The notes under the pieces were generated by a model that was given only the letters and a program-made list of their open reading frames with translations, had not been told where the DNA came from and did not search any database. From Tricharina praecox (lineage: Eukaryota), in contig NW_026250429.1 of NCBI RefSeq assembly GCF_024521635.1, forward strand, positions 62,001 through 126,000: DNA of 64,000 nt. Reading direction: 5' to 3'. Positions 16,888 through 50,854 of this stretch are shown piece after piece (the first letter of the stretch is position 1; the number at the start of each line of letters is the position of its first letter). Position numbers and translations under genes: made by a program.

Positions 16888-19800
16888 CTACAGCTTGATA
16901 CTCCCCGCCAAAAGCTGCAACAACTATATTCCCCACCACCCGTTAGCTCCCCGCCATCCAATCCGATCTGATGCTTCAAGAGAACTCACCCAAGTATTCA
17001 ACTGCCCCCTACTCTGCGCCTCGCCGAGTGCCCAGTCCAGCGACTCATCGGTCGAAAACAGTAGATCGTTCACCTCCTCGTCTTCCTCGAGGCTGCGGAC
17101 AAAGCTCTTGGCTTTGGAGGAGGTGCCGACGCGGGCGATGTGGAAGACGACGGCTACAAGAAGGTAAGGGGTTAATAATGAAACATTGGGGGACAGGGAG
17201 ACGGGGGGTGTTACAGGATGGGCCGTAGCTACTTCTGCCGCAGGAGTGCTTCGATAACTCGTTCTTTGTCGCGAGAATGGCATTCTTGAGCATGTCCTCG
17301 TCTTCTCCGCTCGGCTATCGCACAGGCATCAGCGGCGGGCTCCAATCTATGATCACACCCCCGAACGCGCAGAAAATACCTCGCCATCCGTCACAATGAT
17401 AACAACGACGGGCCTATCCAGCTCCCCTCGCCTGGCCCTATCCAGTATGAGCGGCTGAATAACCTTCGTGACGAGCCTGGTGCCCAGCTGCGTCCCCCCC
17501 TTAGGCACCACCGTATCGAGACACGTCTCAACCTGCTCCTCTGTAACAATCCCATCGAAGCCCCCGTCATTTGTAGCATTAACAAACCTGATCTTGATTC
17601 CACGGGGATTATAAGCGCCAGCAATCCGTGCGATGCGTCTCACCACCGTGCGGAGCGTACCATACCGCTCCTCGATGTTCATCGACCCCGAGTCGTCGCA
17701 GAACACGATCACGTCGTAGAGGCCGATAAGCGCCAGGTCCGGCAGCGCCCATCGAGAGAGCTCGAGAGCCTCGCAGATCCCGGGTGCACGTGCTCCGCGA
17801 GCGCAGTCCGCGGCGGCTTTGCGTGCTATCTGGCGAGGGTGAGGGTTGGTGGATGGGAATAGTGCCTGCAGGTGAGAGCGCGAGATGAAGGAGGTGAGGG
17901 TGGCGTAGTGATCCGCTTCAGTCTGTGGGAGGGGACTGTCTTCGCGGTAGGTGAAGGTTGGCCGTGTTATCAATACGGCGGATGAGGCCACGGCGGTCGT
18001 CGTCGTGTCGGTTGTGTGGTAGGCGTGCCGTCGTTGGATGCCCGGCCCGGTGCAGTGCCTCCGCGGCGAGTTTTTTGACGTCGAATAGCATGTATTCGGT
18101 CCTGGAGCGTGGATCGGCGGCCTGCGCCTGTTGGCGGGTGAGTCCGGGGTTCCGGTGGGCAGTAGTGGTGGTGGTGGTATCAGGAGGAGTGGGAGTAGTA
18201 AGCGTTACTTGCGCTGTCGCAACTGCTGCGCCTTTGGTCTCAGCTCCCGTAGATGTCGCTTTATTTTTTTGTTTTTTTGTAGATTTCGCCCGTCGCCGTC
18301 GGGCCTCGGACGAAACTTCCGTCCGCGATGCTTCTCCATTCGATTTCGAGTCTGCGCGCGACATTCCCACACTCCCCTTGCTAGCCGATCCCGCCGCCGC
18401 CTTCTTCCGCGTCTTCGCCGCCGCCGGACGTGGCTTCTGCATGCCATCGATGTAGGCATCATCGGACGACACGACGTACTCCTTGTCAGTATCGTCGTCC
18501 GGGTTGTGGTAGTTCGGGTCGACTGTTCTCGTGAGACGTTAGTGGTGTTGTCGAGCGGCGGGGAAAGGAACAGGGGTGAGAAGGCAAACTTACGTACCGT
18601 CTTCAAGGAGGATCGGCTTCTTTCTGGCTGACCTGCGCCGGAGGACGTCGCCATTGGACCCTGTGGCTTCGGCGGCATTCACGGCAGAAGAACGATGACC
18701 TCCTCCCCTCGAAGACCTATGACTGGCGGACTTTGACCGCGAAAGCTTGCTGGTCGCAGCAGCACTCCTCCTATCCCCCCCATCATGATCGTCGTCGTCG
18801 TCGTGGTCGAGCATGTTGACCATGTTCGCACGGGGATCCATGGCATCACTCTTACTCCTGTGCCGATGACCGCCATGTTTCCGTTCGCCACTGCTACCGC
18901 CCCGGCTGCTTTCGTGGCCAACCATTGTGGCGACACCGGCCGTGATTTCGGAGACTTCACCCTTGCTCCGATGCCGATGCGCCGCGTCCTTCCTCGAGTT
19001 GCGTCTCCCCGCGCCCATCCCACCGCTATGTTCCGTGTCGTGATCGAGCATGTTGACCATCCCCGCGCGCACGTCGTTTCCGTTCCCGTTCTGCCCGCCG
19101 ATAGCGTACCCGGCCGCCGCCTCGTCGGTCCTGGTCCTGTAGCGCGACGACTTCGGTCGCTCCACCACTACCACCTCCTCGCGGCCAGCGCCGTGATTCC
19201 GTTTCCCGAGCATATTGACGATTCTCCCCTTCAAAATCCCCGCGCGCGAATCCTGCTCCGTGGTAACATTGCCGTTGACAGCCCTCGGCCTATACTCAGT
19301 CTCCAGATCCCTCCTATTCGCCGCGGTCGCCGCACTCGCGCGCCCAGACGACGCCCTCCTCTCCTCAGTGCGATACCCGCTATCGTCATGACTTCCCCTT
19401 CTTGCCGTCGAATGCCGTTTCTCTCCAAGATGACTCTCTCCATACCCCAGATGCGAGTTCGCCGCGCTAACCTTCGCACGCCGGTGCTGCGAGTCCGTCG
19501 ACGTCGTGAACCCTGTAACCCCGCTCAGCGCGCGCTCGGCGGCCGCGCGGCCATCCACGTTACTCCCACTCCTGCGGCGCGCTCTCTTCTCCGCGCGCGC
19601 ACGCTCGCTGACACTCAAATCCGTCGCAGCGGCGCCGGCTGTGGCGCCATCCACCCCCGAGCGCGACCGGCGGTGGCTGTGGCTGTGGGAATGGCTGCTG
19701 CGAATGCGTCCGTCGGCGTCCGCGCCGACTGAGCGCGACCGACTGCGCTTCTCGGGGTTGTAGGAATGGCGCCGGTGAGTGCTGGTTTGGCTGCGGCGCG

Positions 19801-19984
19801 CGGAGACGCTGGAGGCGCCGGTGTCGCGCGCGATCCGCACGCGCGTGTTGCGGTGGTGCTTCAGTGACTTCGGTTTGCGCGTGCGCGATTTCGAGCGTGA
19901 GCGGGGGGGAGAGGCGGCGTCTTCGAGGATCTTCCGCCGGTCGCAGCAGCACGACCAGAGGTGCGCGAAGGGGATGCAGCACAT
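16888..19984 (-). CDS. vWA-domain protein with long disordered Arg/Ser/His-rich N-terminus (one apparent frameshift at ~18030)
   Basis: MIDAS motifs VIVFCDDSGSM, IKIRFVN, GGTQLG and VIIVTDGE. Splicing gtacgt..ctaac..cag joins the 464-aa exon in frame to exon 2. Last exon LLQLLAGSIKL* ends at 16888. Confidence 0.75.
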
Positions 19985-21499
19985 CGTAGAGGAGGCGGCG
20001 ATGCGGTGTAGAGGGCGCGACGAGTAAGGAACTGGGTCTTCACTTCACTGAAAAGCGGGGACAGGTTCGAGTGGGCGAGGGGAACAAAGGGAGTATATCT
20101 ATCAGTGCGTACTATAGTGAGGGGGCCAATGTGAGGGTGGGGGGGGAGGGGCTGGGACCGAAGCGGCAAGTGCAAGTAAGAATCCCACGGCGCGATGAAA
20201 TGCGATGGCTGGAGCCTACTCCGTCGAGGAAAAAAAAGGAAAGCCAGATTAGATTTGCGGTGGGAAAAAGGAAATCATGCTGCGGGCGCCGGGGCGGAGG
20301 AGGGTAGGCAAACGCCCAATACATAATGAACCCGAACGGGGATGGTGATTGGACTGGTTCGTGGGGCTGCGGACATGAAGCTGAGACAGACCGTGTGGGC
20401 CAAACGAATGCAGCGAACCAACGGACAAGACGATAGGATTGGCGGGCAGAGGAGATGCAGGTGCTGCCCGAGTTCAGTGCCTGCGGGAGGGGATGATGGA
20501 TATGGGAGTTCACGAGAGACGGTACGATAGACTCGAGAGTGCTTGCATCCGATGACGAGAGACTACATATCGATACCAGCACGAACGGAGGGTGCGCAAT
20601 AGAGGCGAAGTCCAGTCTCCAGATAATCTGCTTGTTGGTCCTGACAGTCTCAGTATAGTATCAAGTACTACGTACTCGCACAGCATCCCTGACAATGATT
20701 GGTGAAGTGTGGGAAGTGAGGGGCAAGCGCGAGCGACATGTGCTTCTGAAGCAGTGGAGTGGAGTGGAGTAATGGGGACTGTTGGGTAGTACCCAGTACA
20801 TAGTGGCTGGCCCCGTCTCTCAGAGTCAGACGGTCATGTCAAAGACTCCGAGACTCAGAGTAATTGCCCTTCCTTTTGATTCCTCGGCCCCCGCCCACGA
20901 ACGAAAACTATCCTCCTTTCGGAAAGTTCCCTCCTCTCGCTCCTCGCCTCGTGCGCGCGGACTCTGCATCCTTATCAGCCACTGCAGACTTCTGCAGCCA
21001 TATGCGCATGCAAACGCGGCGTTCGACGATCACCGGGCGACGGCGACATGGGGCGTGGGCATGGCGCACCGTAGGGAGCTGCGACTAACTAGTATGATTG
21101 GGGACGTCTGGATCCTTTGACGTTCGGTTAGTTAACAACAACCAAATTTTTAAGAAGAGCTCTGTACAGCGATAGAGAAGAGGCAGGAGATGATTTACAC
21201 AGCGCTCTATCTTTTTTTTAGGGTATGGTTGGGTGGCAACCAAAATCCAAAATAAATAGACGAAAAATGATTTAGTATGGGGAGGCCCCGGGAATGGCCA
21301 GGGGCAAGGCTGCTGCAGCCCAGTCTTAGCATGGCTGAGTTCCCGATGAGGACGTCTTGGCAACAAACATGGTGGCTAATTGCCCTGATAAAGAATATTA
21401 TGTACATAGTAAATGGAAATAATTACGAACAAATTTACTACAATTTTGACTTATCACTAACCTGTCGATGAGCTTTGTATATCTGCGCCTTAGATACCA

Positions 21500-39629: not shown

Positions 39630-41012
39630 ATGGACTAGACTGTGAAGAACATTGGCAGGCTACGAGCATACTATGGTCACGACGAGCTCGAAAGCTTACA
39701 AAGTTATTGAGGATGCAGTTATCTGCGATAAACTGAAAGCCAGAACAATAACAACTCCTTCAGCTCAAAAACTCTTCATCCTCGGCATCTGTCACCTGAC
39801 CACGTCTTCCTCCCCGTCTTTTATGCTCGAAGCTGAATGTTGAACGCATCTAGTAGACAACAAAATAACAACTTCTTCAGCTTTAAGCCACTCCCTCTTC
39901 CTTATCCTCCACCTTTTCCACCTCTACCTCGTCCCCAACTACTACCTCCCCCCGTCTTCATCGCCTTCTTCTTCTCCGCCCCAGCACTGGGCGCCATGCT
40001 CTTTTCGCGTGACCAAGCACCTTCATCTTCTCCCTCCTGGGTAAATCTCATTGGCTTATCGAGGCAGTCAGTGATGATCACTGGCATGGGGTGAGTGCGC
40101 CGGGCGGGGTGGGGGTGGAGGAGGTTGTGACCCACATGTCTAAAAAGCGTAGCTGTGTAAGAAGATTCGCCTCTCCTCCGTTACTCGGAAGCGACAGAGT
40201 CATGATTGACTCCGTATTCATTCTGGAACCGCTTCTTCATCATTCCAGCTCCCGTTCCATCTTGAGCAGCTTGATGGCCAAGGCCTTCTTGCCACCCTTC
40301 GGCACGGATCCGGAGTCGCTCTCCGACTCTGGATCCGTGCTGTCCCGGGCCTTGCGCGCCTTCTTGCGCGCCGGGCGATCGGTCCCGGAAATCTTCCTGC
40401 ACGTTTCGCCGGCGGTCAGGTTGTATGCGTCAAAAGGTTTTTAGTTGTGTCGAGCATTGAGAAGTTATCGTCTGGTTGACGTTGGGGTAATGAAGAGGAA
40501 GGGGTAGAAAGAGGATGTTGATGGTGGAGTAGGGTAGAAAGTGAAAGGAAAGAGGGGAGGTTGATGGTGGTTTATAAAGGAGGGAGAGGGAGAGAAATGA
40601 AGCGTGGGCGGCGAAAACCTGCGGGTAAAACCTAACTCGGTGCGTAGAATTTAATTGCCGTAGCGTTGTGACTGCTGGTGTCTCTACCGTCGAGGCTCGT
40701 CTCTGCCGTCGAGGTCTGTCTTTGCCGCCGAGGCTCGTCTGTGCAGTCGAGGCCTGTCTCTACCGTCGAGGCTTGTCTCTACCGTTGAGGCCTGCTTCTG
40801 CCGTCGAGGCCAGTTTTTGCCATCCAGGTTTGTCTTTGCCGTCGAGGCGTGTCTCTGCCGTCGAGGCTTCTCTCTGCATTCGAGGCGTGTCTCTGCCGTC
40901 GAGGTTTCTCTCTGCATTCGAGGCGTGTCTCTGCCGTCGAGGTTTCTCTCTGCATTCGAGGCGTGTCTCTGCCGTCGAGGCGTGTAGCGGCCGTCGAGGC
41001 TTGTTTCTACCG
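39630..41012 (-). mobile_element. Cassette-family copy with full 21-bp array
   Basis: Array at 40680-41010, header at 40490-40670, Lys/Glu-rich cargo, 3' module at 39675-39740, then hairpin ggctacgagc and TIR-like tggactagactgtgaagaacattg at 39631-39654. Confidence 0.7.
40680..41010 (+). repeat. ~21-bp tandem array (gccgtcgaggc.tgtctct), ~15 copies
   Basis: Read directly; an inverted paralog lies at 50855-51035. Confidence 0.9.
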
Positions 41013-41624
41013 TCGCATCATCCCCCCCTCTCTTCCCCTCCACCATCCCCCTCCTCTGATCAACAGCAACAACACCAACCACCTCCCACCACCATCATCC
41101 CCCTTGCGCTTCCCCAGCATCAACCCGCTCCACTGTTCAACAACAACGACACCAATCACCCGCGATTCTTCCTCTCTTCGTTAGCTGGTACCCGAGAAGA
41201 AAAATGCCAAACCTCAACTTGGACGCCGAATCCGACAGCTCTTCGGAGGTGTCTTCTGCGGGCGGCCTGCTGTAAGCTCACTTTCCCTTTACCTTGTGAG
41301 ACCAGCCCCACTGGAACAGTATGCTGACCTACCCAGCAGGGACTCCCGTCATGACGACTTCGAGGGCATCTTCACGGTTGGTATCGGTCACTGGGGTATG
41401 TCCACTGCACCTTCGCGCAACAGTCGTTGATGATCATGCTGACGGAGTTCACAAGAGGCGGCTCGTATGGCGGAGGAGGGCTACGCCCACATCGGCGGTG
41501 AATCTCCCTGCACCTTCGGCACCTGCATCTGCAGCATTGTTAGCACCATCGTACGTGTCGGGTACGGACTGGTGACCCTCGCGAAGGAGACTTTTGGATG
41601 TTGAGGAGCCGGCTTGCTCAGTCA

Positions 41625-41790
41625 ATGGAAATCGGCAACGGAAAATGGGGGGTTAAGAATTTGTGATCGTCTATCTGTTGTGTGGCGCCTGGGATACTTT
41701 CAGTTGTCTGTAATGAGCCGGCGTGCTCGAAAATGGCAATCGAAAATGGAAAACTGGGTGGTTAGGAATTTGTGATCGTGTCTCTGTTAC
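41625..41790 (+). repeat. Imperfect direct repeat pair
   Basis: ggcaa..gaaaatgg..ggtta.gaatttgtgatcgt.t.tctgtt at ~41635 and ~41735. Confidence 0.65.
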
Positions 41791-43199
41791 CTGGTGTCTC
41801 GATGGGCTTTTAAGATGAAAATTGCGGATACTTTCGGTATTCTCTCCTCTACGTGTGCTCGATTCTTGCTGCTATGTACCGCTGTTGAAGGTGTTAAATT
41901 GACAATCCCATGTTTCTCTACCTTTCTGTTCCCCGAACTGCTACAACGTGAAAACCCACGTTCCCTCCACTTTTCATCCGTGAATCCTCAACATTCTCTA
42001 CGTCGCATGCGTCTACGACATCCGCACCTCCGATGGTAGTCCTCTCATCGTGCGGAATTGTCCGCATATCTCCTGCCTACAGTTCGCCAGCGGCACGACG
42101 TGTCACTCGTTTTGGTAGTCGCACGATTATGTCTCTTGCTCCTGAGTGTCTACGTGAGGATGGTAAGACCATTACCCACGCGATGGAATAGATCCTTCTA
42201 GCCGCACGTTGAGACGTCGTGCGGAAGTGTCTGGTTATCCGCAGATTTCATCGAAGCTGATCATGGCTGCGTCTCTGCCCAAACCGATGAACTGATGATG
42301 CCGCGGATTCCCGCAACTTCCGGAGGATATCAAGTATCAAGCCCCGATTACCTACTCATGTTTGGATGGTATGCTACCCAGGTCGCGTCAGTCTCCCGCC
42401 CGGGGTGGCTCATCATGAAGCAAGAAGGTAGGAGTAGTGTGAGGAACAGCAGGTGGTAAGATTACATGTCCCTTCAAGCTTCAGCTGTAATATTTCTCGA
42501 TACTGCTCGATACTGCCAGAGCACTCCTGGCGTACCGCAAGGCAGCTTCAACCACCCTTCCTCTGATGTCATCAAGCAAACACAATTTGAAGGACGAGTG
42601 AGATCACATGTTCCTGTAAATAGAAAAGCGCAAGTTCTCCGAGTCTTTCAAAGGTTGACTGGCTGAAATTTCCATGATTTAACACCAACGGAGCGGGGTG
42701 ATTCTAAGGAGGTTTTTTATACGAAATCAGATAAATCAGAACATTGCAGCCAGCTCATTTTCTTCCTGCTAGATCTTCCGGCCAACTGATTCTTCACAGC
42801 TACACCACACGTTTTCCTCCTTACTTCACCAGACAAATCGGATTTGATCGTACGTTCCTCTTGAATCTTCATTCTCATCATCTTTCCAGTTTCTTCCCCT
42901 CACACTCTCCGCCGTCCTTGAGCACCCATCCACGCTGCGGCGGTCCATCCATCCATCCATCCATTCACCCATTCACCCATTCCGCACGATTGCGCTGACA
43001 TTCTTACCTCCACCCTTCTAGAGCTCATTGTACTCGTCCACCCTGAATCTTACTCGTTAAAACCCAGCTACACTCGACATCTCCCCTGCTCCCTTGTCCA
43101 ATCGCTATTACGACCTCCCACTGACCTTCGCTCCCCCGGACGCCTGTTCTAATCAATCGTGCACAGCCACCCTTCAAGACTCGTCACCCAAGACTCAAG

Positions 43200-44317
43200 A
43201 TGTCCGCAGAGCAGTATTCGCAGATCTCTCCCGGTGACCGTGCGATCCTCGGGAGGTACGTACTACCACATCCCGCTTTGGTCTTCGATGATGTATGTAA
43301 GGCTAACGATACATCCCCAGCTTGTTCGCCAGCGGCACAGTGAGGCGGCTTGGAGATACGTTGGACGCCAACGCTGCCCAGCAGCAGGGGAGCGCGACCG
43401 CGCAGTCGGGCGAGGCGGGCAACGGCCGGGTTGGTCTGGCTGAGCTCGATGTTAACCGTTCCAGAGATGAGCACGGATCTGATAACTGGCGTGTCCTGCG
43501 CCTGCAGGGAGTCTATGGGCTGGGAGTTGCAGAAGACAACACCACCGCTGCACAACAGATAGTGGTGTTCCCTGCGGAACCGGAGGCGGCTGGCGAACGC
43601 TACGATGGCATAATACGCGATTTGGATTTCAACGGCAGTGATCATGACTCGGGCACCCACGGCGTACAGGGTCTACCGGGAGAGACCAGTGGGAAGAGTG
43701 AAGAAGCCAAGGCTATCGAGATGCAAGAGGTCGCCCTCGAACAATGGATGTCGCTTCGCGACGTGGCCATGCGCGATTCTGGAGTGATCCACGACGGCAG
43801 CCTTGATCGCGGCTCGGAGAGTCTCGGTGTCGAGAGAGTCCCAGTTAATCCCGCATCCGACGTTGATGATGGCAGTTGCACAGCTGCACACGGGGAGGAA
43901 CACGATCTCGAGCAGGGATCCACCACCGACGCCAATACTGTGTCTCTGCAGTTGACCCAGATGCAAAATTCACACCGGAATATCTCGCTGTACGGTACCA
44001 CACCCAGCGTCACCTCGCCCTTCGTACAGAACTACCAGCTGCAGAGCGAGCTGAATTACAACGAGTACGTCAGGCAATTCAACACCCGTCCGGGGGCGAT
44101 CCACGGTGCGGAGGATGATCGCCGTCTGCCGGACGATCTTTACCACGCTCACCTGCGTGACGTTTACGTCCATCCCGCTCACCCTCACGCCCGGTCCCCA
44201 ATTTCGGATTCGAAAGTGAGCTGTCGTATCGGATGGTGGGTCTTCTGGATCGTCGCAATCGCCCTGGTTGTCGTGCCGCCCGCTATTGTTCTGGCCATTT
44301 TCACCCACGATCAATAA
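43200..44317 (+). CDS. Hypothetical acidic/disordered protein with a C-terminal transmembrane anchor, 2 exons
   Basis: ATG at 43200 (MSAEQYSQISPGDRAILG), intron gtacgt..ctaac..cag (43256-43320), 331-codon open frame ending WWVFWIVAIALVVVPPAIVLAIFTHDQ. Confidence 0.75.
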
Positions 44318-45011
44318 TAGGTTTTTAGTCTAACCTGAATAACCAGCCGGTTATCTAGTTCAAACTTGCCGATCAGTGTAGTGTCGCCTTCAAGTGTCGG
44401 TTGCTTTGCGTCGCTGTGCATGGGTTGGTGTAGAGTAGATGGTCGCTCTTCATGTCTCGGGCCTGTTTGTATTTGATCTCTCTGTACTTCTGGGAACACG
44501 TACTAGTACGGCATTGGGAAATGAAATTTGTCTATCTAAACCACTTCTGTTGCTTATTTTTGTGTATCTCTTCTTGATAACGTCAGATAGTTAATACACC
44601 ATCGAGACTTCTGTCCTTCAAAATCTCCCTCTCTCTGTCTCTACCGCGTTCCCCCTTCGCACGACCTCCTCTTTTCCGCTCCGCCCAAACGACATCTGTG
44701 ATGGGTGGACAGAGGCAGAGTACCATTATCGTTCAGATTTTCCGCATATAGTTACCGTAGGTTGCACAAAGACTTTCAGGTTTTCCTCGTATCGGCAGAG
44801 TATCGGTTGCACAAACACTTCCCGGCTCGATTGGCTTTCCCGAGCATACCGGTGATTCCTTGCATTCTCTCGCTACACACGGCCAACTCTTATCACAGCC
44901 CAGTGCAGGTTTGCAACACCTTCTGCATGCGGCTGCTGAGCTGATGTTTACCCCGCTCTTAGCACGGCACCTCCGGTCACTGCTCAGAGTCCGGAGGGCA
45001 TCCAATCCGTG

Positions 45012-45018
45012 TATAAAT
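45012..45018 (+). promoter_or_regulatory. TATA-like box followed by a CT-rich tract
   Basis: tataaat followed by ccttccctctcttttctctctttctccc, typical of filamentous-fungal core promoters; lies upstream of the ribozyme-containing unit. Confidence 0.45.
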
Positions 45019-45080
45019 GACCGCCATTCCTACGCCCTTCCCTCTCTTTTCTCTCTTTCTCCCCCATTGACACCACCGCG

Positions 45081-45645
45081 ATGAAGCCTTCGATAGAAAG
45101 ACCGTAAAAACCGGAACCCCGGGGCCCACCCCCAGACGCACGCCTGCCCCCCGCCCGCCGTCCTCCACAAGCCCGGCTCTCTCAATGTGACCATCCGGTC
45201 CCCCGGCGCGCTTGCGCGGCCCGCCCTCGCACGCCCACGTCTGCATCTGTGTCCCCTCTCCGTCCTCTCCCTGTTCAGGTCCGTTCTACGTCGCCCTGCT
45301 TCGATCGCCATGTCGTCCGCCACCTCGTATGGAGTTACCGTTAAACCCCGACACCGATCGGTAGAGACCCTACTCCTTCCCGCCCCTGTGACGTGCACCC
45401 GGTACGCGTAACGTGTCCCTGCACCCAGCTGGGACGCTCCGTTCTACCGTTCGGGGGCGGATATGCTAATCTCCTTTCGGTGTCGGCCGGGTTGGCAGCC
45501 CGAGCCCTGACGATGGTCGCCTTTGAGGCCGAAACACCGTGATTTTAGGTTCGAGGGTTGGTCGCTTCGGGGCGACGTAGTGCTGGCTGTGAAGTATGCG
45601 AGGCGCAGCGGATTGGTTGCGGCGGGTAGAATGGTACGTAGATAG
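45081..45645 (+). CDS. Predicted small spliced ORF (~80 aa) or non-coding host transcript with two introns (45103-45278, 45402-45548)
   Basis: Joining exons at gtaaaa..ttcag and gtacgc..gctaat..tttag gives one open frame MKPSIERPSVLRRPASIAMSSATSYG..VTCTRFEGWSLRGDVVLAVKYARRSGLVAAGRMVRR*. No recognisable homology. Confidence 0.35.
45478..45539 (+). ncRNA. Type III hammerhead ribozyme
   Basis: Stem III cggtgt/acaccg. GUC cleavage triplet (cut after 45484). Stem I ggc+cgggt/gcccg+gcc with a bulged A. Core CUGACGA at 45507-45513 plus an extra U. Stem II ggtc/ggcc with loop gcctttga. GAAA at 45531-45534. Confidence 0.87.
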
Positions 45646-46870
45646 AAACCTGAAGCAATAGATGATCTGCTGTGTTCGTTAATAAAAATCGCCCGAGCGT
45701 CGATGATTATGCGCGATTAAGTGACCGTACTTGATATGTGATATTTCTCGTCGCACAGTATGGGATGAACGAACACTCACATCGACTCCCTTGGGCATTG
45801 AATCCCTCCCATTTTGTGGAGCCTTCCACTGCGATCCCATGTTGTTTCCCAAGTTCAGGCTTCAACCGTTCGCTCCATCAATCCCAGCGCTTTCCCGCAC
45901 GTAAGCCGTTGCCCAATGTTGCACATGTACGTATGTAGTACATACCAAGCCCCGCACCTCAGTACACACGTAATGAGCACGATACGGTCAAGTCTCGATG
46001 TTGTTGCCACACCCGGCACGAACGTCGTCGGCTACCCACAATCCTCCCATATAGCCGTACCGTGTATCGGCTCGTGATAGCATACGACGAAGGGCTATCA
46101 TCTCGCAAGGAAGTCGGTTGTGCCGGTATCGGATTCCTCGGCCCCGTACCTGTGGCATCGATGTCAGCATCAGTGTCAGCATCGCACGGGACGGACGGGG
46201 AGGGAGGCGCGAACTCTACGATAGTGGGGCTCGCTGTACGCGAAGACCTTCGCAGCTGGATTCGAGGAATAAGAGATTCGAGGGATGGGAGGTGGCCTGG
46301 CGTGGCGGGCGCGGTTGGCGTGATGGCGAGTGTGTGCTGGACTGCTGGACGGTGAGGAGTTGGGAGGAGTAGGAAGGAGTAAAGCAGCGTCTGCCATCGT
46401 TGCTGGCTCCCGATACGACTACGACTACCACCAGCACCAGCACCAGCACCGTCGTTCGTCTCCACCATTCGTGCGTATGTGCACTGCGCGCGGGCTTCGC
46501 CGTGAGCGGGAACCTTTTGTTCCGTTTCGCTTAATCGTGCACATCCCGAATCCCTGCCAAAGCGAGCGAGAATCGAAGACACGAGTGAGGTTCTGTGTAC
46601 TACGACTGCAGAATTGCTTTTGACGTACCGGAGGAAGCAAGTAATCGGACATTTTCATGGCCTGTGGGATCGACCGAATAGAGATTTACACAGAGATTTA
46701 CCGATATACACATTGAGATTCACTGAGATTCACATTGAGAGTTGCATAAAGATTTGCACAGTTTCAAGTTTCGGGCAAGAATGTTTATTATTTGCTATCT
46801 TGCGCGCGCGGAGGCCGGAAGATACAAATGAAAAAGGTCCTGACCGATGAACGTGATTTTCTGACCCCAA

Positions 46871-47690
46871 TTACTCCGTTGACATGCCGGCGACACAGCT
46901 GATGCCCTGCGTACCCGGGGCCGGCTGATCTCCCACATCCGTGTGGATGTAATGTTGGTAGATGAGGGCGGGAACGTTGAGGTTATTCGCATCTTGATTG
47001 TTGGTGGCCTGGTCGGGATCTTGGTGGTTCACATTATCCCCATCGTGATCCTTCTTGTCGACGAGCTTAGCGGGATAGTTGTTGGTATTCTTGATGAGAC
47101 CATCGTCGGTACCCACGATAACCTCCTTGACTTCAGTCTTTTTGGGAGAAGGCTGGATGTCGTCCGCGACCTTGGGATCGTGTTCGACACTCTCGACAGA
47201 GGACTTCTTGACAACGTTGATCACATCCTGCGGGACATTATTGACATCGGTACGCTCCAGCAGCGTCATGGGGCGAACATTGACAGCATTCATGGGCGAG
47301 CTAGACACATCAGCATCTACTCATCACGAGCCAACCAGCAGGAGACAGGAGACAACACATACGCTGGCTGGATACGGGGGTTGGACACCCATGGCATGGG
47401 GACCGCGGCCGCAAGGCCAGCTCCGGCCACATGCACGACATTCATCGGTTGGCCGATTACCATAGCTGGGCGTTCAACTTCTTTGTCGGTCTTGAACAAG
47501 GCAAGCTTGTCCCCACCCTTCTTGACGACCTTCTTGATGGACTTCCCGGACTTGTGGCTGGCAGCCTTGATGAGCTCCTTGAGCTCTGCGAAGTGAGGCA
47601 GTTAGTACACATGAGAGTACGGAGTGGGTGAGGGCGACGAACTATGGATATGCTCGCGAATTTTGGGCATATTTGTTGTTTTTGGGGGTG
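46871..47690 (-). CDS. Hypothetical protein with CRIB/PBD-like motif, 3 exons
   Basis: Splicing gttcgt..ctaac..cag and gtatgt..ctgat..tag gives MPKIREHIHKLKELIKAASHK..PAMVIGQPMNVVHVAGAG..SPMNAVNVRPM..AGMSTE*. Confidence 0.6.
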
Positions 47691-48179
47691 ATTGGATTTT
47701 GTGAAGATTATTGAAAAGCTCAAAGTTAATTGAAGTAGTAGGATACTCCAATGTCGTTGTGTCCTGGTTATCTGAAGGGATAAGTAAAAGGAAAGGAGGA
47801 AGAAGACGAAAGGAAGCAACCCTTTTATTGAGGGCCGAGGCGTCGTAGGGTAAAACCCTTTGTGTTTTGGGCAAACCTACTCACGATCGTGAAGTCCCGC
47901 TAGCTGTGTTTTGTCGGCGAAATTATACATAGAATTGTCCCCGTGATGGTGGGGTAAAGTGGTTTTGACATCGAGTGAGTGCGGGAGGCAGGCACAAGGA
48001 GCCAGTACGTGAATCCGGAATCCTCCACCAACGTGCGTCACAGGCGCGGCTTGGCAGACGATAGAGAGATTCGGATATACTAAAACATATGTAACCACCT
48101 TTATGGACAAGATATGGAAATACAGGAGGTCATCACGCTCATAGCATGAGATATCACGGTGGAGCGTGTGAAGCAACCG

Positions 48180-48512
48180 TGATCATTTACTGTGAACCCC
48201 GCGCCCTCACCAAACGTGCTGCACAGAGACTCCAGCTCGCTCCGCAAGTGGGCATACGTCAACCGTTACATGGTAGAATACACTAAGTGATCCATTAGGC
48301 AGGGCATAATCGGTCCCCAATCAATCCCTCAGACTCATGCCAGCACTTGTGGTAATTGTAGACGACTACTACTTTGGGTCAACCGTACTATTCGTGCGGA
48401 CAGGACTCTTACTCGCACGATTACCATTGGCCTCGTAAGCGTGTCGGGTAACTATGATCCTTTACTGTGAGCCCCGCGCCCCTCATCGAATGTGCCCCAG
48501 CTCACTCCGCAA
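48180..48512 (+). repeat. ~65-bp direct repeat pair
   Basis: gatc.tttactgtga.ccccgcgccc.tca..aa.gtgc..ccagctc.ctccgcaa at 48181 and 48457. Confidence 0.7.
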
Positions 48513-50854
48513 ATCGGGATAGCTCACGGTTTGGCAAGCCGTCTTACTACTTCACGTGCGCAGCGATTGTTGGAAGTTGAAGTTATGTATGTCACAGAGC
48601 ACGAATTACTATGGTCAAAGAACGACGGTGTGATATAAAAGCTTAATTCGCATCCACTTATACTGCTTCAGACTAGACTGCTTCCAACTCACTCGGTGCT
48701 GTTTTACCAGGAACGTGACTACGTTATTTTCAACCGGGGCGTGGCGGGATGTGGACTCGCTTGTGGTGGTGACTCCCGCTGCGGCTCTGGCTGAGGTGGT
48801 TGGGGCGGTATCGGCAAGCCCATACGATGCGGCGGAGTGGGAATTTGCAGGGCTGCTAACTTCGAATTGCCGCCGTCCCCGCCGCTGTTAGGAATCGAAG
48901 ACAAATCCGCGAATAGCTCATCAAACTTGGTAATGCTTTGAATGTGTTGGGATCTACGGCAGCAGCCACTTATCTAATCTAGGAACCGGTCTTTTGATAT
49001 TTCACTAGTTGCAGCCCTACACGCAACTAGCGCTACAAACGTCACAAGCTTCTTGCCCCCTCCCATTTGTTGGAAGTAGCGGCGAAAGTGGGGCACATTC
49101 TAGGATGTTGCCCTAGACTGCGCACCACGCGCCACTTATAAAAGGGTAGTTCTTCTTTTCACAACATACTTCGTCCTCCATCCTTCTTCCTTCATCTATC
49201 CTCTTTCATCATTCTGGCATTCTTCATCCTTCACCAACAAATATTCGGTAAGTTACCACGAATCCCAAAGAAACATGGCACACATCGACATGTCCCTTTT
49301 TAACATCACCAGCAATTCTTTTCTTCGCCACTTCATGATTTGCGGCTGTTCTTCGGCTTGCCCTGCACGGAATAATTTCCAAAGCGCAGCTCGTTTTCTC
49401 CGTGATGGAGGTTTTACCTCCACCGTGTGCGTACCATGGTGCGCATATTAAGTAATACCCCATCCTACCAAGCCGCCCGGATTCTTAACATTAATAATCC
49501 CGACGTTTAGAAAAACTGCCTACAAGACCCATTACTAGTGCCACGCCTCCCCTGACTGGATTCAAGACCCGACCGGTGGGGGCGCTCTGCGGATGTGGAC
49601 CTCAACTATACCCTGGTGGTGGTCATGCAGTTGCGCAAGGTATGCTACTCTCGGCCGATGTTCCATTTACTGTTTCATGCTCACATGCTTCTAGTGCTGT
49701 GATCACCCCCACCTTCTGCCACGCGCAGAACCACATCGCCCAGAAATACAGAGCATTGCGGATCACTCCGCTACGATCATGTTTCAGGTTTGGACGACTG
49801 GATGGCACCACCCCATAGCCAGACGAAACCTCGGCATCAGACTGTTCAATAATGGCCCCAATTACAAGATCACCCTGATCTCGACTGGCGCCGGAGGATT
49901 GGGAATCAACCTGGCACTGTGTTTGATGTCATATTTGGTCCGCCTGAAGTGCGAGGGGCCCCCAGAGAATTACTCCGAGGCATGCTCCGATGACGAGGAC
50001 TCCGAGGATGCCGCAGAGAATACTCTGCGGCACACCGATGACGAGGACTCCGAGGAGGCTTACTTCTACTGGAGCCATATTTCCGCTTCCTATCCTCATC
50101 TGGCGGTGCCTCCGTCAGCCACAGCGTCTGGACTTGCAAATCAGCAAGTGAGTCCGAAACTCACAGGGATTAAAGGGACCCCTACCACACCCGCGATGTC
50201 TACAGTCCACTAAAGAACCTCGTCCCAAGTTTTCAAATGAGAACAGGGATTCCAGTCTCCGAAAGGCTACAGAACAAGATGAATCGTCGAAGGCCTTGAA
50301 ACACCCAGGAGGCGAAGGCAAAGGAGGAGATAGCAAAGGGACCTTCAACAAAGCATAACTCGGTGGTGACGATCCGTGAAACGGAATGACGCTGGACCGC
50401 TTGAAACTTGAAGGTACTGCTTTGCCAGGGTATTGGAACGACATCTTGTATAGTTTAATACAAAACCTCAGTCAAGGGTTGTTGAAATACCAGCAGTATA
50501 CGGAGGCGTGGGTGGTCAGCGGCGACGGCGCCGATAGGGCGTTGGCGGAGGCAGGTGGTGCCGGCAGGTAGTCGCCGGCATGATATACGAGTCGGTAGAT
50601 AACGGTCAACGCAAAGGCAACTCTCATACATATCATCCGTTCGAAACTCCGTGCCTTTCAACAATTCAGCTGCTCTCTCAATTGTTGGATATGTGCTAAG
50701 ATGCCGAGAATGTGGAAGGCGGCTCGGTTTGCGTATGCGCGGTGGGGAGGATAGAGGCCCATGCGAGGACGCGCTCACCCAACAGTGGTGTGGCCTGCGG
50801 TCGGAACTCGTGGGGCTACACATAGCAGGTCTAGTGCAGATATAGCTGGACCTC

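Follow-up and report, generated by a model that had tools for sequence, protein, structure and literature searches.

A type III hammerhead in a non-coding transcript of the fungus Tricharina praecox and a 157-nucleotide, probably circular RNA that ends at its predicted cleavage site

Among eukaryotes, genome-encoded hammerhead ribozymes have been described chiefly in retrozymes, in satellite repeats and in a few introns of amniotes; for fungi, the literature searched is confined to motifs associated with repeats in a yeast and to viroid-like RNAs of exogenous origin. According to the sections cited here, the retrozymes of plants and animals (PMC4918200, PMC7229834, PMC7761336, PMC11721086) are genome-encoded RNAs that are cut by hammerheads and then joined into small, abundant, non-coding circles, with a tRNA ligase as the proposed joining enzyme. 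There, each end carries a repeat with a hammerhead, and the whole ribozyme is retained in the circle; the words fungi and fungal are absent from the review PMC7761336. Here we describe a hammerhead in a stretch of 64,000 nucleotides (nt) from Tricharina praecox (Pezizomycetes; assembly GCF_024521635.1, contig NW_026250429.1, positions 62,001 to 126,000), hereafter the window, to which all coordinates refer. We think it probable, though by no means certain, that this hammerhead cleaves between C45484 and G45485 in vivo and that a small, likely circular RNA results from a fungal non-coding transcript. A first-pass annotation of the window had instead placed the ribozyme between the branch point and the 3' splice site of a predicted intron and had proposed a switch between splicing and self-cleavage.

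The hammerhead named in that annotation is present, real in form and above chance. It has type III topology, with three helices round the core, of which stem III is open and stems I and II end in loops. The conserved core is complete and comprises C3 U4 G5 A6 N7 G8 A9, G12 A13 A14, the pair A15.1-U16.1 (U45483-A45534) and C45484 as H17. The elements are as follows, with stem lengths in base pairs (bp).

45478-45539, plus strand: type III hammerhead ribozyme, with a descriptor match, 17.6 bits over its full length with the Rfam model RF00008, 33 bits with the class model R1 (see below) and an RNA joint at 45484
45478-45483 and 45534-45539, plus strand: stem III, 6 bp
45484, plus strand: C17, predicted cleavage at 45484/45485, between C45484 and G45485
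45485-45491 and 45499-45506, plus strand: stem I, 7 bp, with A45503 bulged and a 7-nt loop
45507-45513, plus strand: core CUGACGA
45514, plus strand: extra U between A9 and stem II
45515-45518 and 45527-45530, plus strand: stem II, 4 bp including one G-U, with an 8-nt loop II
45531-45534, plus strand: core GAAA

Sequencing runs that match the locus are two of unstated type and three soil metatranscriptomes. Four of them (X1 to X4) were aligned to positions 41000-49000 (8001 positions) as assembled contigs, not raw reads. X1 and X2 come from two separate studies and X3 is a soil metatranscriptome. Contig cover is incomplete, since X3 has no contigs flanking the RNA described next and X1-X4 have none over much of 41000-49000.

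45328-45484, plus strand: 157-nt RNA with its ends joined from C45484 to U45328, in one X3 contig

This contig of 187 nt consists of 45440-45484 followed by 45328-45469, with 0 mismatches and a depth of 77, and the joint has neither shared nor inserted letters. It thus comprises 157 nt plus an identical stretch of 30 letters (45440-45469) at both termini. A 31-mer assembly graph outputs an isolated cycle with repeated 30-letter ends, and because the same 30 letters end the contig on both sides we read it as a closed cycle of 157 nt. The coordinate from which the joint departs coincides with the predicted scissile bond, one of 8001 positions, and it is mainly for this reason that we accept cutting by the ribozyme in vivo. 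The suggestion of the first-pass annotation that cleavage may define an RNA 3' end is thereby supported. The 157-nt RNA, in which the ribozyme core is missing, is probably closed covalently into a circle, and its predicted fold is a rod of -57.1 kcal/mol (z = -2.2).

A perfect 10-nt direct repeat, TCCGTTCTAC, occurs at 45280-45289 and 45438-45447 with a spacing of 158, near the length of the 157-nt unit. It is not the source of the joint, because 10 nt are too short and the joint has no shared letters. A tandem arrangement of the unit was also considered and rejected; the 157-nt segments on either side of 45328-45484 do not align with the 157-nt RNA.

The descriptor used for the hammerhead was no stricter than the example at the locus itself (stem III at least 5 bp, stem I at least 3 bp, stem II at least 4 bp, extra base optional). 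It matches once in the window, as compared with 0 of 300 and 3 of 3179 dinucleotide shuffles (3 in 3479 in total), or about 0.001 chance matches per 64-kb window, so that the match is above chance for one window. At the Rfam gathering threshold the whole window gave 0 matches. When IMG/VR was scanned for this layout with the extra U included, 85 matches at 84 loci were obtained, and 69 of the 85 (51 distinct) are well formed, with at least 5 bp in stem I, at least 4 in stem II and at least 4 in stem III. Aligned to each other, the 51 distinct phage hammerheads show plain covariation in all three stems. RF00008 was applied to 20 of the 84 phage loci: 7 match at the site of the pattern (23.5-36.3 bits), 13 give no match at E<=10, and none reaches the gathering score of 48.5 bits. 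On account of the IMG/VR matches and their RF00008 scores, we regard the extra U as a variant that is frequent in nature and poorly captured by the Rfam model. The class model R1, a covariance model made from the 51 distinct phage hammerheads with the extra U, finds 45478-45539 in the window at 33 bits (rough E of about 4e-6) and no other site below E = 2. Both RF00008 and R1 align the hammerhead end to end.

The phage sequences form a large type III class, with a U between A9 and stem II, a near-invariant A ending loop II and scores below the RF00008 threshold (for example L015, positions 298-356); two of the loci, L051 and L038, each have a second hammerhead close by. In metagenomes, near-identical motifs of the form CUGAAGAUGG...CCGAAACACCG occur in many contigs (L086-L118, for example L088, positions 2001-2038), and in several cases GUGUC comes immediately after the motif, which gives a very short stem III and a type I-like appearance. 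These motifs look like a multiply copied element and have no relation to the fungal locus.

The RNA in which the hammerhead resides is best read as the non-coding, unspliced product of a chromosomal gene of Tricharina praecox.

45123-45634, plus strand: unspliced non-coding transcript of about 510 nt (contigs 45123-45634 in X1 and 45130-45626 in X2)
45002-45006 (CCAAT), 45012-45018 (TATAAAT) and about 45035-45066 (pyrimidine-rich tract), plus strand: promoter-like elements upstream of the transcript, read from the sequence
45286-45296 (5' arm) and 45570-45580, plus strand: long-range inverted repeat, 11 nt perfect, paired in the predicted minimum free energy (MFE) fold of the 512-nt RNA

The ribozyme, the promoter-like elements, which we take to be such from fungal RNA polymerase II (Pol II) promoters in general, and the orientation of the adapter, which follows directly after 45626 in the X2 contig, point to transcription from the plus strand. 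Contig depth over the locus is 189 in X1 and 1585 in X2, against 2.6-16 for neighbouring contigs of the same runs, which suggests that the RNA is highly abundant, although such depths are crude contig means and a poor measure of expression. The longest open reading frame (ORF) beginning with ATG has 33 amino acids (aa). Rfam searches at E<=10 with stretches of 401, 151 and 651 nt at the locus returned only c4-a1b1, which we judge to be a chance match, and a tRNA scan of 44800-45900 returned no tRNA-like element. The transcript sequence is single copy within the window, and an exact 29-mer and an exact 24-mer from the locus had 0 matches in the viral collection. According to the folding model, the 11-nt inverted repeat would close a central domain.

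A second pairing partner for the ribozyme lies within the 157-nt RNA.

45348-45357, plus strand: competitor strand CCGACACCGA, a perfect 10-nt complement of 45477-45486

Its complement spans the 5' strand of stem III and the cleavage site. In the MFE fold of 45328-45548 (-83.2 kcal/mol) the competitor pairing replaces stem III, whereas the fold with the hammerhead enforced has -77.4 kcal/mol. Because of this competition, the active fold is predicted to be a minority conformer. The ribozyme would then be slow or conditional, which would fit the persistence of uncut full-length RNA.

We propose the following course of events. The plus-strand gene would yield the unspliced, non-coding transcript of about 510 nt (45123-45634), most of which the competitor at 45348-45357 would keep in an inactive fold, as folding predicts, leaving much full-length RNA uncut. 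In the remainder the hammerhead would cut C45484/G45485 in vivo, as the joint at this bond suggests. The upstream cleavage product would then receive its other end at G45327/U45328, most likely from a host nuclease or from 5'-3' exonuclease trimming to the base of a folded domain. Fungal tRNA ligase uses 2',3'-cyclic phosphates, as is established for the splicing of tRNAs and of HAC1. Presumably, this enzyme would join the two ends on the 2',3'-cyclic phosphate expected from the ribozyme, and a tRNA ligase has been proposed as the joiner of such ribozyme-left ends in retrozymes, in the relevant passage of PMC7761336. The outcome would be a rod-like RNA of 157 nt, observed through its joint and probably circular, that has shed the ribozyme.

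That X2 consists of RNA follows from a neighbouring transcript, which converges on the locus and whose X2 contig is spliced at two CT..AC introns.

45781-46647, minus strand: convergent neighbouring transcript with two introns, in one X2 contig

One joint, 45889/45946, removes 56 nt bounded by CT..AC, and the other, 46147/46213, removes 65 nt, bounded by CT..AC if the cut is placed 2 further right. The first intron of this transcript, the one with its ends read, begins with GTATGT. The neighbouring transcript is spliced in X2 and has unspliced cover in X1. It may be non-coding as well, to judge from a crude joining of its exons that gives no long open frame. Two short tandem repeats, (CCAT)n-like at 42936-42976 and (CAG/CAC)n-like at 46406-46457, were left out of the contig alignment as repeats. 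Elsewhere in the window a block at 18001-20000 is rich in GC (63% as compared with about 52%, AT skew -0.26) and contains long open frames at 18590-20044 (minus strand) and 18737-19732 (plus strand), the minus-strand frame without a Pfam match; none of 13 long ORFs of the window scored above threshold with Pfam. A further ORF, at 17353-18204, is 100% identical to a named NCBI protein of Tricharina praecox over 36% of the query, and the next named matches come from Trichophaea and Wilcoxina.

Several observations weigh against cleavage in vivo and a circular product. With respect to the motif, a chance rate of about 0.001 per window counts for more when very many windows are scanned. The 17.6 bits of RF00008 compare with a gathering score of 48.5, and the match is reported only for a 91-nt query and is absent with 401 or 651 nt. 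The class model R1 is partly circular as evidence, since the pattern that fixed 21 of its positions derives from the locus sequence. The local fold of 45470-45548 is not unusually stable (z = -1.0), and neither is the predicted fold of the 512-nt RNA (z = +0.8). A metagenome scan with a hammerhead pattern leaning on the locus gave 34 loci, none of them related to it (blastn of 44000-47000, E<=1e-3). With respect to the RNA, the joint from 45484 to 45328 comes from one contig of one run, and the same cycle would also arise if reverse transcriptase switched templates end to end on a linear RNA of 157 nt that is abundant. The neighbouring contig of X1 is unspliced, so that X1 may be DNA, in which case a depth of 189 would indicate an element in several copies. 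Finally, searches for the origin of the 5' end at 45328 were negative. Both strands of the transcript hold one CUGANGA only, no ribozyme family matches 45270-45420 (Rfam, E<=10), and the locus has no tRNA-like element. A GTATGG at 45327 adjoins this end, which is odd for pure chance.

45327-45332, plus strand: GTATGG, resembling a 5' splice site, with the 157-nt RNA starting one base inside it at U45328

For the 45328 end, a host nuclease or 5'-3' trimming halted 2-3 bases before the first helix (45330/45331) is the likeliest cause, and a new self-cleaving motif at 45327/45328 is possible. Three other origins were rejected. A second hammerhead does not apply because of the single CUGANGA on either strand and because G45327 cannot be H17. 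Pistol, HDV-like, bulge-helix-bulge and Ire1-type models, compared by eye with 45300-45380, did not fit. A lariat would link A45469 to G45327, and G45327 is absent from the joint. The alternatives to the course proposed above are taken here in the order in which they survive. The first shares its 3' end: a true circle would owe its 3' end to the hammerhead and its 5' end to a second self-cleaving motif that cuts G45327/U45328. We consider this unlikely, but if it is true the locus would be the first DNA-encoded system of ribozyme-made circular RNA in fungi, would add a ribozyme class and might be a chromosomal origin for mycoviroid-like RNAs.

The unit might also be a retrozyme-like mobile element, non-autonomous and present in many genomic copies, whose circle is processed by the hammerhead and serves no host function. 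A type III hammerhead, as in plant retrozymes, together with a small circular-looking RNA agrees with this, and an 8-nt direct repeat, GATAGAAA, at 45092-45099 and 45641-45648, just outside the contig ends, could be the target-site duplication of an inserted unit; the chance of such a repeat in two 66-nt flanks is about 4.7%. If X1 were DNA, its depth of 189 as compared with 3-8 would mean many copies. Since GATAGAAA flanks the unit and X1 may be DNA, the reading keeps some weight. However, there is one hammerhead only and there are no long direct repeats (the longest has 17 nt at 76%), so that hammerhead-bearing direct repeats at both ends and a circle with a complete hammerhead, which define retrozymes, are not found at this locus. 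A 157-nt circle could not be processed again, because it is without ribozyme. In addition, the sequence is single copy within the 64 kb, no copy was found in the viral or metagenome collections scanned, and the cover of X1 is patchy and, as RNA would, tracks the parts that X2 shows to be transcribed. A mobile element of this kind is therefore quite unlikely.

A third explanation starts from GTATGG, by its sequence a good donor, as the start of an intron at 45327-45548. The first splicing step and a hammerhead cut in the tail of the lariat, followed by debranching, loss of the first G and ligation, would lead to the 157-nt circle, and the 5' exon 45123-45326 would be released as in a telomerase RNA made by the first step only. 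In Schizosaccharomyces pombe TER1, a long distance between branch point and 3' splice site reportedly uncouples the splicing steps, and first-step-only splicing is said to define the 3' end of the telomerase RNA. This logic underlies both the present explanation and the splicing-switch model. GTATGG lies one base from the observed 5' end, TGCTAAT and TTTTAG follow downstream, and a branch-to-AG distance of 79 nt with a tail that can be cut would, by analogy with TER1, disfavour the second step. Against this, G45327 is missing from an unambiguous joint, reads of a lariat would run from A45469 to G45327 in a cycle of 143 nt rather than 157, contigs bridge 45326/45327 unspliced while none ends at 45326, and four extra steps are required. 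Such an origin of the circle is improbable.

It is very doubtful that the hammerhead is a chance motif that never cuts, with the join resulting from a 157-bp tandem duplication in the soil strain or from a library artefact. The Rfam score far under threshold, the many false motifs to be expected in a very large scan at about 0.001 per window, the single contig in a single run, and an active fold 5.8 kcal/mol less stable than the competitor fold all speak for it. On the other hand, the join falls on the exact predicted bond, 1 position in 8001, the core is intact and its sole deviation is common to 69 well-folded natural phage hammerheads, and the sole nearby direct repeat (10 nt, spacing 158) cannot misjoin a 31-mer graph.

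The intron of the first-pass annotation comprises the following elements.

45402-45407, plus strand: GTACGC, the proposed 5' splice site, read through without splicing in contigs of X1 and X2 and kept inside the 157-nt RNA
45464-45470, plus strand: branch-like motif TGCTAAT, with A45469 as branch A, pairing with 45545-45548 in the hammerhead-enforced fold
45543-45548, plus strand: TTTTAG, the proposed 3' splice site, read through without splicing in contigs of X1 and X2

GTACGC at 45402 and TTTTAG ending at 45548 are thus where they had been described. TGCTAAT is present as well, but one base to the left of the 45465-45471 given for it, and the branch-to-AG distance, put at about 77 nt, is indeed long and amounts to 79 nt from A45469. 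Folding of the ribozyme would collapse this distance, as had been proposed, with 8 + 9 nt remaining rather than about 15. The pairing of ctaatc with gattttag is found in the predicted hammerhead-enforced fold, as C45466-G45548, U45467-A45547, A45468-U45546, A45469-U45545, U45472-A45542 and C45473-G45541. The use of these signals is another matter. The junction 45401^45549 was sought in the RNA and does not occur in the contigs of the four runs, while X1 and X2 contigs bridge 45326/27, 45401/02 and 45548/49 without a gap. Equally loose sets of intron signals number 53 on the plus and 56 on the minus strand of the window, as compared with 66 +/- 10 per strand in 50 shuffles. The flanks of the proposed intron are without a convincing ORF. 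Its 147 nt and its GTACGC start stand beside spliced introns of 56 and 65 nt in the neighbour.

That 45402-45548 is nevertheless a real spliceosomal intron, in which folding or cleavage of the hammerhead competes with the second step, is very improbable: donor, branch and acceptor signals are all present, the branch motif pairs with the AG region in the ribozyme-enforced fold, removal would lengthen the 33-aa ORF to about 62 aa and the hammerhead appears to cut in vivo, but four runs hold no spliced contig and unspliced contigs of two studies bridge both sites, the 157-nt RNA keeps both donor and branch motif, signal sets of this kind are no commoner than chance predicts, the donor GTACGC is weak, the proposed intron with its 147 nt is long beside the local ones, and the extended ORF would stop at 45643-45645, past both contig ends. 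The splice-like signals round the ribozyme are best read as chance matches and not as an intron in use, and a splicing switch is unlikely in view of the unspliced contigs, the chance-level signals and a 157-nt RNA that retains donor and branch motif. A minor spliced form may still occur, because contigs drop rare variants. Plausible splice signals round a ribozyme thus need RNA evidence before a switch is proposed.

We therefore return to cleavage by the hammerhead and a probably circular product, and to how such a locus compares with described systems. The phage type III class that falls under RF00008 shares the topology, the core, the extra U, similar sizes of stems and loops and an A as the last base of loop II. 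It differs in that phage copies are clustered between genes, whereas the present hammerhead lies in a eukaryotic nuclear non-coding transcript, is single copy in the window, and has a bulged stem I, an 8-nt loop II and 17.6 bits with RF00008. Telomerase RNA of S. pombe provides the splicing analogy considered above, but the locus has no telomerase RNA features, its transcript has about 510 nt only, no end occurs at a 5' splice site and the observed end is that of the ribozyme.

The closest precedent for the splicing-switch idea are the intronic hammerheads of amniotes (RECK, CTCL/C10orf118 and DTNB), which likewise reside in Pol II transcripts and are suspected of a role in RNA biogenesis. In the parts of the reports concerned (PMC6155905, PMC3088659) they are described as type I, located in long, truly spliced introns of protein-coding genes and conserved across species, in contrast to a locus whose host RNA is non-coding and in which intron use is not observed. 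The interspersed-repeat hammerheads of Yarrowia lipolytica (Perreault et al. 2011, PMC3088659) also belong to a fungal nuclear genome. However, they are multi-copy and associated with repeats, and the pertinent passages report no in vivo ends or circles.

The BdcRNAs of Botryosphaeria dothidea (PMC9875651) are likewise small (157-450 nt), rod-like, non-coding circles of a filamentous ascomycete. The portion of that report considered here describes them as exogenous, self-replicating and without hammerheads, whereas the 157-nt RNA is encoded in a chromosome and has no ribozyme of its own. The two are set side by side by size and not by sequence, and the shared 157 nt is judged to be a coincidence. 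Viroids and mycoviroids exist as RNA only, with no DNA counterpart. The present sequence is chromosomal and lies between spliced nuclear genes, and for this reason the 157-nt RNA is not a viroid-like replicon.

In the literature searched, which excluded most subscription journals, no genome-encoded hammerhead-derived circle of a filamentous fungus was found. What is described here is a single, apparently well expressed fungal locus at which the cut of a hammerhead is visible in RNA data and leads to a probably circular RNA that sheds the ribozyme. If confirmed, it would offer a tractable system for the role of a domesticated hammerhead in a fungus, a way to learn if ribozyme products are made circular by the fungal tRNA ligase, and a concrete case of a chromosome giving rise to small circular RNAs like those found free in fungi. 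In its proposed course, a hammerhead cut and then circularisation, the RNA resembles retrozyme and viroid-type systems. Retrozymes carry hammerheads at both ends and form circles that contain them; the locus of Tricharina praecox has one hammerhead and no long repeats, makes its other end differently, and yields a probable circle without ribozyme. We conclude that it belongs to the ribozyme-made circular RNA kind, with a variant layout, rather than representing a splicing switch.

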